Source of the DNA: Escherichia coli O157:H7
GTDB lineage: Bacteria > Pseudomonadota > Gammaproteobacteria > Enterobacterales > Enterobacteriaceae
Assembly: GCF_013167455.1 (NCBI RefSeq)
Contig: NZ_CP038328.1
Length of the DNA: 64,000 nucleotides
Strand: one strand, 5' to 3'
Shown: positions 45,001-48,000 of the stretch, in pieces
Layout of the letters: each line of letters begins with the position of its first letter
How positions within the stretch are numbered: position 1 is the stretch's first letter
Made by a program: the position numbers

Positions 45001-48000
45001 CCACCCACAGCTGGTCAGGTCGTTCTGCCACGAACTGACGGTTTACGCGGTCGCCTGCGGCAACGGCTTTCCGGCTGATGGTCGTACGGACCTTTTTACC
45101 CCGGAGAACACCGGCAAGTCCCATAACCGCCATGAGACGTGCCACTGTACATCTGGCCACCCTGATTCCTTCCCGTAACAACTGACGCCAGACTTTACGC
45201 ACACCGTACACCTGATGATTTTCATCGTATACGCGCTGTATCTCTCTCTTCAGCCAGTCGTCGTGCTGCGCACGGGCACTGCGTTTATCCGGATGATGTC
45301 GCTGTTGCTGACAATGGTAATACGTTGACGGGGCAATATGCAGTTCGCTGCATACCGGTCCGACCCCGTACTGCTCACGCAGCTTATCCAGCAGTGGCAT
45401 CATTTTTTCCAGAGGCGGTCGAACTCCGCCTTCGCAAAATAAGCGGAAGCCTGGCGAAGGATATCGTTACTGCGGCGCAGTTCACGATTTTCACGTTCCA
45501 GCTCTTTCAGACGCTGACGTTCAGCGCTGGTGAGCCCACCATCACCGCCCCCGGTATCCCGCTCATGCTGGCGAACCCAGACACGCAGAGTCTCCGGCGT
45601 ACAGCCAATCTTTGGGGCAATGGAACAAATTGCCGCCCACTGTGAGTCATATTCATCCTGACTTTCCAGAACCATACGAATCGCCCGCTGACGGACTTCG
45701 GGGGAAAAACGAGTATTTTTAGTCATCCTGTTTACCTCTTTCTCAGGGAGTTTAGTCTCCAGGATTTCCGGGGCGGTTCATCCAGATAAATAGCACTCCC
45801 CTGTTCGGGGTCCATCCCTCTTCTCCCTGCGCGCTACTTAAGTATTTTTGATTCTATTCCGGCGCCGTCCGGAACTTCAAACGCGTTGAAAATAAAAACA
45901 AAAACCCGCCGAAGCGGGTTAAGTGCGGGTGCGTTGAGGATGCCTGACACATCAGAGGTGGCGAGGGATTTCTCCCCCGCCTGGTCTCTTACTCCTCAGG
46001 TTCGTAAGCTGTGAAGACAGCGACCTCCGTCTGGCCGGTTCGGATTCGTACCTCGCAGAGGTCTTTCCTCGTTACCAGTGCCGTCACTATGACGATTAAA
46101 CAGATGACGATCAGGGCGATTAACATCGCCTTTTGCTGCTTCATAGCCTGCTTCTCCTTGACCTTTCGGTCCGTAAGAGGCAATCTATATGTGACGAGCA
46201 TATAGGGGCCTCACTTCGATTTATAGTCGGGTGGGGCTTTTATCTATCTGCCGTTGGTGTTCATGCCCGAGGCAGATAGCCTCAAGCACCCGCAGCAATC
46301 CTACTTAACTCTGCCGTTACAGCAAACCGTTTTCGCCCGATATGGGAATTCCCATATCGGAATGAATTCAGTTCACCTGGCGAGGCTTAGCGTACAATTT
46401 TTTCCGTTTTGTGAGCTGCCCCTACATGCCGCTGGCGCGGCATCCGGAAAAAGAATCCACGTCCTGAAGGACGAGGATGTCAAGTGCCTTTCCTGGTCCA
46501 GCCATATTTTTTGAATGCAGGCGCCGCTTCATCGGTTTGTAGCCATTCTGCAAATCGACGGGTTTCATCATTTGCATCCTGACGTACTGTAATGTTCATA
46601 TCACGCCATATCACGTAGTCTGGCGCTATTTCCACGACATCACCAATTTCTGGATTACTGGCTGCCCAGTCAGCCCAGGTTATCCAGACATCTGCTCCAG
46701 GCTGATTCTCAAGAGCCTTACGTGCAGTTCCGCTATTGGGCGCATATAAAATAATATTTTTTCGGATTGCGGCGACAGTTTCTATATTCCCTTTACGTCC
46801 GGCAATATCTTCCCAGACGCCAGTGCCTGATGTATTACTGGTACCACCACCATCATTAACAATTACGCCAATCCCAGGTCTGGTCAGGTCGTCAATACTC
46901 CGGATATTTTTAGGATTACCTTTCTTTACCAGTAAAATACTTTTTCGCAGATAAAGAGGCTGAATATCTTTTTCACTGAAGCTGTCTTTATGGTCCCGAA
47001 TGATAGCCAGAGCAGATTGTTCTGATGCGCCAAACAAGATATCTGCATTTTTTTTGGCATCTTCATTCCATTTGTTCTGTGGGCCGTAATGAACGTTCAC
47101 TATAATACCTGTTTTTTCGGCATAAAGTTTGGCTGCATCAAGCAAGGCTGTATGCGGGCCACCAGGACCATACAGATTGATATCAGCATAAGCAGCAGAA
47201 GACAGGAATATTAAAAAACCTGCCATTATGTTCCTCATAAAAAACTCCTTTTATTGGTTATCATGAAATAAAGTTATAAACACTACAAATAATATATATT
47301 ACATCCAGATAAACTTATCCGACTTTACCTCGTGCATAGCTTGTTATTTAAAGTCAACAAAATAAGGAAAATTATACGCATATTGAAGAGTATAAACCTT
47401 ACATGTTGATTACATTTTTGTAATCAACATCCTGTTTGGAATAGCCAGCCTTTAATGGATAACTATTTCTGACAATGCAATGAGTATAATCAAGTCCATC
47501 TTCCACTGAGAATTAGAGGCGGCATGCTTTTTCCGGCTCTTGCCGGATATCCGTAATTGTCCATAATCTGCAGATTTATACCTTCTGCATGACCTGTCAG
47601 CGAAAATTTGTCCGGTGTTTCTACGGGAATGACATCAAAAGTTACACGCACTCGCGTTACCGTGTAGACCTACTTTCCTGCACTTGCAAGATCACAGTGG
47701 TGTAACCGTAACAGGAATTTATTCTCTGGACCGGCAGTAAATCCCTGAGTGGCGTGGTTCCCATATCAATTTCCCGCCAGGCAGCCTCCATTGCCAGCGT
47801 ACAGGCTGGAGCCATGACCTGCCCTTTAAATCTGGCCCGACCATCCCACCGGACGTGTTCTTCTCCCCTGAACTTAGGTACAGTCATCTCCAGTGGCACA
47901 AAAGTGTCAGCGCCATAATTTTTGACCGTTATCGCGCTACGGATATTTTGTTGACTGGTGAAAATCACCCCGCAGAATCAGGCTTATTCCCTTAACCTGG

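Follow-up and report, generated by a model that had tools for sequence, protein, structure and literature searches.

Among the described type I toxin-antitoxin (TA) systems of the hok/Sok family, hok/sok (parB) of plasmid R1 is plasmid-borne with proven post-segregational killing (PSK). Its mRNA of ~400 nt carries an element set (tac/fbi, ucb, mok SD/dcb and a tailed Sok) that is also found in its IncF relatives, and a switch of this mRNA from a closed to an open form has been described (PMC9841398). A prophage-borne member, hokW-sokW of the Stx2 phage 933W and Sakai Sp5, has been shown by experiment to be a type I TA system, with sokW counteracting the toxicity of HokW (PMC8621323). Members in K-12 include hokC (gef) with mokC and sokC, hokA/sokA in the core-genome locus cspA-hokA-glyS, and hokD (relF) of the cryptic prophage Qin.

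The window considered here, a stretch of 64,000 nucleotides from Escherichia coli O157:H7 (contig NZ_CP038328.1), very probably holds a complete hok/Sok-family type I TA module, namely the intact hokD (relF) of Qin-like lambdoid prophages, which is the EHEC ckf beside adfO/paa. As every known regulatory RNA element is present by sequence and the locus is already annotated, it is considered real but ordinary; the locus is known, and it is the Sok RNA itself that is unannotated. The gene beside adfO is named ckf (z2054, OI-57) in the literature, and a search for published work on hokD/sokD and Z2054 found almost nothing relevant. The R1 system has the same element set and the same predicted closed-to-open folding logic as the window locus, but its Hok is only ~41% identical, its mok frame differs from that of hok, its leader is longer (173 nt), and its PSK is proven. 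A blastn search against plasmids did not reach R1-type hok, and a protein search was therefore used.

The toxin gene and its prophage setting

The toxin gene (hokD, ckf or gef; hokD in RefSeq) is an ORF of 51 amino acids, MKQQKAMLIALIVICLIVIVTALVTRKDLCEVRIRTGQTEVAVFTAYEPEE, on the minus strand at 45989–46144, nested in a 70-amino acid ORF that starts at 46201. Its match to the Pfam HOK_GEF profile (PF01848; E = 1.7e-21, 75.9 bits against a cut-off of 22) covers profile positions 1–42 of 42, as for a hydrophobic Hok/Gef peptide of ~50 amino acids, and bears out the complete Hok toxin claimed in a preliminary description of this DNA. The Shine-Dalgarno (SD) sequence of hok, AGGAG, is located at 46158–46154 (minus strand). 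The protein is 98% identical to K-12 HokD (50/51 residues), 90% to HokW and 80% to HokC, and on the first two of these identities the window Hok would be expected to be toxic through membrane depolarisation and to be neutralised by Sok. At Tyr47, a TACG motif (46003–46006, minus strand) corresponds to the site at which TadA A-to-I editing, changing Tyr to Cys, has been reported for K-12 hokD (PMC5630033).

The longer ORF (45989–46201, minus strand) is mok-like, consisting of MLVTYRLPLTDRKVKEKQA followed by Hok, with the layout of the annotated mokC and mokW. The overlapping mok-like frame proposed earlier stands in its overlap and is refined in its register: it is the hok frame itself, entered at an upstream start. 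The mok SD, GAGG (46209–46212, minus strand), is situated 7 nt upstream of the mok AUG and aligns with the GAGG mok SD of R1 (PMC9841398). This upstream start, with its own SD, overlaps hok, and under the family model the translation of the two would be coupled.

The locus lies between the replication gene P and the rusA/Q-side genes of a lambdoid prophage (Qin-like, PPompW-type), in keeping with the nin-like region first suggested. The neighbouring IS629/IS1203 element (44471–45780), also recognised in the preliminary description, has its near end 112 bp away from the final T of the hok terminator; it is adjacent yet outside the hok transcription unit, which it leaves untouched. A clean target-site duplication was looked for at the IS629 insertion and was not found. 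Megablast of the IS629/hok junction (45661–45900) returned the exact junction in one piece from no complete E. coli genome searched, a set from which the source genome was possibly absent. In copies related to the window prophage, genes for replication and lysis carry additional IS elements. Identical DNA to the hok locus is annotated hokD by RefSeq in hundreds of O157 genomes, beside paa/adfO, and a 699-bp hokD-paa query finds as many as 8 matching places in an O157 genome.

The locus belongs to the hokD (relF) orthologue group of Qin-like prophages, consistent with its PGAP name, hokD. K-12 Qin hokD shares the synteny ydfU - rem - hokD with the window, with 96.6% DNA identity over 45781–46158 (378 bp) and 83% across ydfU-rem, the two being collinear except for IS629. 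At window position 46158, 14 nt before the hok AUG, the homology gives way to relBE, which stands in place of the leader; K-12 hokD is thus without promoter, tac, ucb, mok start and Sok, and an Rfam scan of it gave no match. In contrast, the leader elements are all present in the window, with paa/adfO rather than relBE upstream.

Putative promoter, elements and predicted folding of the hok mRNA

A putative weak hok promoter was read from the sequence at 46298–46326 (minus strand), with a -35 of TTTGCT/TTGCTG (46326–46320), and a -10 of TAGGAT (46303–46298); the +1 G at 46291 follows after 6 nt. At its -10 and +1 the site lines up with hokW, hokC, hokA and other loci, and its -35 is poor and unconserved. 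From this start (GGGUGCUUGAGG), placed at position 1 of the Rfam model, a full-length hok mRNA of ~397 nt would extend on the minus strand from 46291 to the terminator T-run at ~45893–45895. The downstream terminator that had been noted is a strong intrinsic one, AACCCGCTTCGGCGGGTT followed by TTTGTTTTTA (45893–45920, minus strand; stem 45920–45903 plus T-run). A resemblance of the hok 3′ UTR to Rfam isrK was sub-threshold (24.9 bits against 50) and was taken as terminator or hairpin resemblance.

The Rfam scan proposed in the preliminary description matched RF01794 (“sok”) at 46291–46142 with 103.9 bits against a gathering score of 59 (E = 1.7e-22). This match is on the hok strand, and the model describes the hok mRNA leader, not Sok. 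The tac and fbi elements were sought as well, and both were found, along with ucb, the mok SD, dcb and a 3′ protective hairpin, all on the minus strand. The tac element (GGGUGCUUGAGG, 46280–46291) is predicted to pair with fbi as long as the mRNA is full-length, and with ucb once the 3′ end has been removed. The ucb or anti-SD element (AAGCCCC, 46233–46239), by comparison of the two folds, covers the mok SD in the full-length form and tac in the shortened form. The Sok-target hairpin (46185–46205), located by the Rfam match and the folds, has a CUAUAUG/CAUAUAG stem whose 5′ arm holds the mok AUG, and a CUCGUCA loop (46198–46192) that includes a YUNR-type CUCG. Closing the set in the leader is dcb (GCCUC, 46177–46181), which by RNAalifold and folding pairs with the mok SD (GAGGC) in the “open” form. 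An inverted repeat joining 46198–46209 and 46418–46429 is also present; as a meaningful structure it was judged to be chance.

Across 12 diverse leaders, RNAalifold independently recovered the tac/ucb stem (columns 1–8 / 70–76), an extended stem with four compensatory pairs, and the mok-SD/dcb stem (columns 118–122 / 152–156). The window leader, at 147 nt close to those of hokC (150 nt) and hokA (149 nt), fits all of these consensus stems and has both the tac stem and the mok SD/dcb target hairpin.

At the other end of the transcript, a 3′ stem-loop, GGCGGGGGA-GAAA-UCCCUCGCC (45960–45981), is present in both folds and is the expected protector of the 3′ end of the shortened hok mRNA; R1 has an analogous 3′ stem (PMC9841398). 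The fbi element, CCUCAACGCACCC (45927–45939), was placed by duplex energy, offset and minimum free energy (MFE) structure, and is complementary to tac with one bulged C. The tac-fbi duplex is predicted at -21.5 kcal/mol, a value equalled by 1 of 300 shuffled 3′ UTRs. The offset of fbi after the stop codon (48–63 nt) is the same in the window and in nine other intact loci, and the two partners covary in hokA and hokB. By the same duplex test the pairing was not significant in the IS186-truncated K-12 hokC and hokE; in hokC, IS186 lies 20 nt past the stop, whereas the window 3′ UTR is intact. The elements lost from K-12 copies are accordingly intact here, both the leader (compared with K-12 hokD) and the 3′ UTR with fbi (compared with the IS186-hit hokC and hokE).

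The full-length mRNA folds at an MFE of -163.8 kcal/mol (z = -6.44; 0 of 100 shuffled sequences fold as well), and the tac-fbi pairing closes this structure as a long-range 5′-3′ lock. In silico removal of the 3′ 61 nt switches the MFE structure to one in which the tac/ucb and mok-SD/dcb stems are both present, the same closed-to-open change as is known from R1 (PMC9841398). It is hardly conceivable that a small ORF and a terminator have come together here by chance, in the absence of any regulatory RNA; the one point in favour is that the ORF is small, and this explanation is refuted by the Pfam and Rfam E-values and the z-score of the fold given above, and by the conservation of the locus in phages, plasmids and chromosomes. 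Judged from the sequence, the Pfam, terminator and Rfam signals are far beyond chance.

The predicted Sok antisense RNA

A Sok antisense RNA of about 49–55 nt, GACGAGCAUAUAGGGGCCUCACUUCGAUUUAUAGUCGGGUGGGGCUUUUAUCUAU, is predicted on the plus strand at 46193–46247, with its ends taken from the annotated sokC and sokW through Rfam and MAFFT alignments. The candidate folds into a 19-bp hairpin, preceded by a free 9-nt 5′ tail and followed by a U-tail (ΔG -21.4 kcal/mol, z = -4.7). The complementary strand of this segment folds at only -8.3 kcal/mol, and the Sok strand has six G-U pairs. In architecture and energy this candidate cis-encoded antisense RNA equals the annotated SokC, SokB and SokW. 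Its predicted promoter (46158–46186, plus strand) is composed of TTGACC (46158–46163), a 17-nt spacer and CAATCT (46181–46186). A sigma-70 consensus scan of 45780–46480 flagged neither this nor the hok promoter, its single match being an unrelated one at 45880–45851 on the minus strand, and the Sok -10 agrees with the consensus at only 2 of 6 positions. Placement was therefore by alignment to mapped or annotated Sok genes, in which the promoter aligns 1:1 with known Sok promoters: it is collinear with that of K-12 sokC (TTGACC-17-CA(A/C)TCT, 6 nt, then G), and aligns with those of sokW, sokB and R1. For SokC, RNA 5′-end sequencing in K-12 matched the known start exactly (PMC2912661).

Both the RNA and its promoter are situated within the interval of ~46150–46260 on the plus strand where the antisense RNA had been guessed to lie. 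According to the preliminary description, failure to detect an antisense promoter or RNA of the Sok type would have implied an inactive remnant; both are predicted here, and its interpretation is supported. Sok would be expressed from 46193–46247, and, as is known for homologues, would probably be transcribed, unstable, and a guide for RNase III cleavage (PMC2912661; PMC8621323).

It is quite unlikely that the locus looks intact and is silent, as in the K-12 chromosomal hok genes, with weak promoters, a shortened Sok hairpin or folding defects leaving no Hok and no phenotype. In its favour, PMC5630033 counts four hok genes of K-12 as inactive, and a preprint citing Pedersen & Gerdes (bioRxiv 10.1101/2025.08.07.668861) reports that intact chromosomal hokA, hokB and hokC could bring about neither post-segregational killing nor rifampicin activation, so that an intact-looking locus can still be phenotypically silent. 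The failure of both promoters in the consensus scan points the same way, as does the restriction of the exact variant to a near-clonal set: the ~580 genomes with it share at least 99% identity, and purifying selection on this Sok gains no independent support from them. Against silence, every element destroyed in K-12 hokD, hokC and hokE is intact in the window, folding in silico reproduces the predicted closed-to-open switch, the Sok promoter has the same architecture as that of sokC, which is transcribed, and hokW-sokW, a close homologue from a prophage, is functional (PMC8621323).

Like the window locus, hokW-sokW is prophage-borne with an in-frame mok, and the two are 85.5% identical in DNA, with identical tac, first 48 nt of the leader, fbi and hok SD region. 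However, SokW is annotated at 71 nt, its hairpin having a 21-nt extra segment that is absent from the window Sok; the target loop (CUCGUCA in the window, CUGAACA in hokW) and the Sok 5′ tail differ, as do the Sok -35/-10 (TTGACC/CAATCT in the window, TTGCCT/TAACCT in sokW) and the 3′ terminator region. The two loci also sit at different places in the phage genome, in different prophages and among different neighbours. On the hairpin, tail, loop and neighbours, the window locus is a paralogue of hokW-sokW, not the same locus. The hairpin, being 21 nt shorter than those of its nearest hokW-type relatives, could in principle be a deletion product; SokC, SokB, SokE and SokA are of a length similar to the window Sok. 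The hokC locus likewise has an in-frame mok (69–70 amino acids), a nearly identical Sok promoter (TTGACC-17-CACTCT, 6 nt, G), a Sok of 59 nt compared with ~55 in the window, and a like hok-SD hairpin, GACCG(A/U)AAGGUC, but differs in its Hok, in hairpin sequence and in target loop.

Outside the O157 prophage copies, the best match of the Sok hairpin segment is the hokA locus, with 88.9% identity over window 46198–46259 and one compensatory C-G to U-A change that keeps the stem. The rest of hokA is distant: Hok is ~37% identical, and the 5′ tail/target loop, hok SD region and 3′ UTR all differ. Nucleotide diversity across seven close relatives from prophages and plasmids is highest exactly at the Sok 5′ tail/target loop (0.33–0.41; the locus averages 0.11 and the hok CDS ~0.03). 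A rather unlikely, speculative reading is that the module is a mosaic of a hokW/hokD-type backbone, a core-genome hokA/sokA-type Sok hairpin and a private recognition tail/loop, in which case the diversity peak could reflect diversifying selection that keeps the Sok “addresses” of several modules in one cell orthogonal to one another. On this reading, chromosomal SokA might also engage in partial cross-talk with the prophage hokD mRNA through the shared stem.

Proposed mechanism, role and meaning

The elements, their predicted pairings and their homology can be read from the window sequence; transcription, processing, toxicity and biological role are proposed here by analogy with R1 hok/sok and Sp5 hokW-sokW. 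A stable hok mRNA of ~397 nt would be made from the weak promoter. In the full-length state, 5′ tac would be locked to 3′ fbi and ucb would cover the mok SD, and because of this sequestration the mRNA is proposed to be neither translated nor bound by Sok. Slow 3′ trimming to the 45981–45960 hairpin would free tac, which would then pair with ucb, so that the mok SD and start would be shown in the dcb-closed hairpin. This open form would be bound by the short, unstable plus-strand Sok (46193–46247), its free 5′ tail pairing with the target loop and mok start; binding would stop translation of mok and of the coupled hok, and the duplex would be marked for RNase III. Upon a halt in Sok synthesis, whether by loss of the element, shut-off of transcription or prophage induction, Sok would decay, Mok and Hok would be translated, and the 51-amino acid Hok would depolarise the inner membrane.

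The same module may serve another purpose than PSK-type stabilisation of the prophage, namely as an aid to lysis and phage release triggered by induction, or in abortive infection when a phage shuts off transcription; this is possible, though on the unlikely side. For hokW-sokW, sokW is lost after mitomycin C in a RecA-dependent manner and Sp5 release is doubled (PMC8621323); R1 hok/sok is cited in the same paper as lowering T4 plating; and, in the preprint mentioned above, hok genes are ~4-fold enriched in prophages. That text also gives hok as not enriched near defence systems (bioRxiv 10.1101/2025.08.07.668861), and the sequence itself carries nothing that discriminates among these roles. 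In addition, given IS629 in the window prophage and the additional IS elements in replication and lysis genes of related copies, the prophage may be defective, which would make a role in assisting lysis moot.

As a complete hokD-type module, the locus has little importance beyond annotation. Since what the Rfam “sok” model recognises is the leader on the hok strand, automated pipelines would put “Sok” on the wrong strand and at the wrong length. The window locus shows K-12 hokD as it was before relBE replaced its leader. The gene ckf/z2054, listed as a “virulence factor” in STEC typing papers, would in fact encode a toxin directed at the bacterium itself, as part of a type I TA system; to this gene the window adds an unannotated, predicted Sok RNA. 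If functional, the module could help to maintain the adfO/paa-carrying prophage, or could modulate lysis at induction as hokW-sokW does.

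Toxin gene and prophage neighbourhood

The hok reading frame (46144-45989, minus strand) encodes a 51-aa peptide, MKQQKAMLIALIVICLIVIVTALVTRKDLCEVRIRTGQTEVAVFTAYEPEE, that covers the entire Pfam HOK_GEF profile (E = 1.7e-21). An in-frame ATG upstream, at 46201 on the same strand, opens a 70-aa mok-like frame, and transcription would end at a strong intrinsic terminator (45920-45893, minus strand) made up of AACCCGCTTCGGCGGGTT and a T-run. The complete toxin, overlapping mok-like frame and downstream terminator of the preliminary description are thus borne out, and its reading as a hok-family type I toxin locus is both supported and sharpened; the Pfam and Rfam (RF01794) matches, along with the terminator, place the observation far above chance. 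A TACG motif (46003-46006, minus strand) includes the TAC codon of Hok Tyr47. TadA-dependent A-to-I editing (Tyr to Cys) at TACG has been reported for K-12 hokC, hokD and hokE (PMC5630033), and such editing here would give the peptide a second cysteine.

The family is very well studied, and this member of it is already annotated. Hundreds of E. coli O157:H7 chromosomes carry the 699 bp from IS629 to the next gene at 100% identity, and there RefSeq labels the ORF 'type I toxin-antitoxin system toxin HokD' and its neighbour 'AcfC family adhesin Paa'; GenBank records of the PPompW prophage name the ORF 'gef: phage maintenance protein'. This neighbour, paa/adfO (46480-47238, minus strand; 252 aa, SBP_bac_11 fold), lies directly upstream of the hok promoter region, and by this adjacency the gene is the ckf of the literature. 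A virulence 'moron' and a toxin-antitoxin module are linked here, in agreement with reports that adfO and ckf constantly occur together. A frameshifted fimbrial gene follows paa/adfO in related genomes, and the gene order (replication P, DUF1627, fimbrial pseudogene, paa, hokD, rem, DUF968/ydfU, rusA, DUF1133 and other late-side genes) is that of the nin-equivalent region of a lambdoid, Qin-like prophage, as had been proposed. Additionally, a perfect 24-bp palindrome, CCGATATGGGAATTCCCATATCGG (46337-46360), that separates the paa terminator from the hok -35 is assigned to the paa-side flank, because homology with other hok loci starts just downstream of it; it may serve in protein binding or mark a recombination junction. 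Within the prophage's late-region tRNA cluster (39591-39860 and 39973-40202), Rfam lists the anti-sRNA AgvB (39591-39650, plus strand), STnc100 (39652-39860, minus strand) and two minus-strand tRNA genes.

The 1310-bp IS629/IS1203 element (44471-45780), said to lie immediately beside the locus, is indeed adjacent, between the rem start and the hok terminator, but 112 bp separate it from the latter and no hok or Sok element is interrupted. Its insertion point precedes the rem ATG (44455, minus strand) by 15 nt, and genomes lacking the element are otherwise identical. The left flank reads ...ATCCTTTC, the right TCCAGA... and the empty site ATCCTTCCAGA; a clean 3-4 bp target duplication was not seen at the flanks (44460-44470 and 45781-45790). 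This exact junction occurs in none of 5,426 complete E. coli genomes, and in strains 28RC1, NE122 and F3398 an independent IS629 lies within rem, 57 bp from the site in the window.

The predicted antisense RNA and its promoter

At the gathering threshold, a whole-window Rfam scan gave a single match at the hok region, to RF01794 'sok' (103.9 bits; 46291-46142, minus strand). The match lies on the hok strand, runs from mRNA +1 and ends on the hok AUG, which fills its final three model positions. In K-12, RF01794 likewise matches the hokC strand (654-502, minus, of the extracted locus), with curated sokC on the opposite strand (553-611, plus). Accordingly, the scan, suggested earlier as a check for Sok, certifies a structured hok mRNA leader that contains the Sok complement, and not a Sok RNA. 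Pipelines relying on RF01794 would place 'Sok' on the wrong strand and make it about three times too long. A sub-threshold match to isrK (24.9 bits against a gathering score of 50; E = 0.003) on the 3' UTR hairpins (45899-45980, minus strand) probably reflects generic hairpin or terminator similarity, and this identity was rejected.

The ends of Sok were instead transferred through alignments from annotated sokC (K-12) and sokW (phage 933W), which places the predicted RNA on the plus strand from G46193 to a U-run at 46241-46247, within the interval of about 46150-46260 guessed earlier. Its 5' end lies 9 nt inside mok, as in sokC and sokW. In its predicted fold (-21.4 kcal/mol, z = -4.7), the 55-nt RNA has a free 5' tail of 9 nt, then a 19-bp hairpin and a U-tail, an architecture and energy range matching annotated SokC, SokB, SokE and SokW; owing to six G-U pairs, the hairpin is far more stable on this strand than on its complement (-8.3 kcal/mol). 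The predicted promoter (TTGACC, 17 nt, CAATCT, 6 nt, G) aligns without gaps to that of K-12 sokC (TTGACC, 17 nt, CACTCT, 6 nt, G), whose start site is exactly matched by RNA 5'-end sequencing (PMC2912661), and is also collinear with those of sokW, sokB and R1 sok. Its -10 is poor by consensus, and a simple promoter scan of the region flagged neither the Sok nor the hok promoter. The sole consensus-like site in the scanned region, TTGAAG-18-TAGAAT (45851-45880, minus strand), is located shortly past the hok terminator and faces rem, from which IS629 now separates it.

Predicted folding of the hok mRNA

The predicted hok transcript of ~397 nt (46291 to ~45895) has a computed fold with z = -6.4. 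In the full-length minimum free energy structure, the first 12 nt, tac GGGUGCUUGAGG, pair with fbi CCUCAACGCACCC (45939-45927), and the mok SD GAGG (46212-46209) pairs with an upstream GCCCC box, ucb. All 10 intact loci examined share a tac-fbi duplex (about -19 to -22 kcal/mol) located 47-67 nt past the stop codon, and the two elements covary in hokA (tac ...GAGA, fbi UCUCAUUGCACCC) and hokB (tac GCCU, fbi AUGGC). In K-12 hokC and hokE, both of which carry IS186 just past the stop, tac has no significant partner. When the 3' 61 nt are deleted, tac switches to ucb, and dcb (GCCUC, 46181-46177) takes up the mok SD to close a hairpin; the stem-loop of this hairpin (46205-46185) bears the mok AUG and has CUCGUCA as its 7-nt loop. 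A GGCGGGGGA/UCCCUCGCC hairpin caps the predicted trimmed mRNA at its 3' end. This modelled refolding corresponds to the switch from closed to open form described in R1 hok (PMC9841398). Three stems emerge from RNAalifold on 12 leaders (the window, hokA, hokB, hokC, hokE, hokW, one of R1 type and five from phages or plasmids): tac/ucb, SD/dcb and an inner one that contains four compensatory pairs.

A mosaic leader and possible roles

K-12 Qin aligns with the window through ydfU-rem and then over 45781-46158 at 96.6% identity, but homology to K-12 hokD stops 14 nt before the hok AUG, at which point relE-relB takes over in K-12, and no Rfam leader match was found for K-12 hokD. A locus that is truncated in K-12 is thus complete in the window. 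The closest relatives (hokW, mEp460, Rac-SA53, vB_EcoS-640R1, P1-like plasmids and pD17; 81-89% identity) differ in the stem sequence of the Sok hairpin, of which the window lacks a 21-nt segment, and two compensatory changes set the small hairpin ahead of the hok SD apart from that of hokW-type loci (GACC...GGUC in the window, UGCC...GGCA in theirs). In contrast, hokA/sokA, a core-genome locus flanked by cspA and glyS, shares 88.9% identity with the Sok stem (46198-46259), which one compensatory C-G to U-A change preserves. With a Sok promoter and hok-SD hairpin resembling those of hokC, and a tac end, CDS and 3' UTR resembling hokD/hokW, the leader is a mosaic.

Across seven close loci, the window included, nucleotide diversity peaks at the Sok 5' tail and target loop (46189-46205), a stretch that also covers mok codons 2-3, at 0.33-0.41 against a mean of 0.11; the loop of the 3' protective hairpin is another peak, and the hok CDS is nearly invariant (about 0.03). 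The first peak hints at selection for distinct Sok addresses, seven sequences being too few for proof. Separately, in K-12 hokC, IS186/IS421 lies about 20 nt past the hok stop and thereby removes fbi. The same downstream sequence follows hok on two IncY plasmids, from Cronobacter and Salmonella, and an IS421 transposase is annotated on the latter; the GC-rich region of the 3' hairpin looks like a recurrent IS186 target.

That the locus is silent is a minor possibility, raised by a preprint's report, citing Pedersen & Gerdes, that intact chromosomal hok loci do not mediate post-segregational killing (bioRxiv 10.1101/2025.08.07.668861). For an active hok/Sok module, the sequence favours none of the alternative roles, which would be prophage stabilisation by such killing, abortive infection, or assistance of lysis upon induction, the last of which has been shown for hokW-sokW (PMC8621323).
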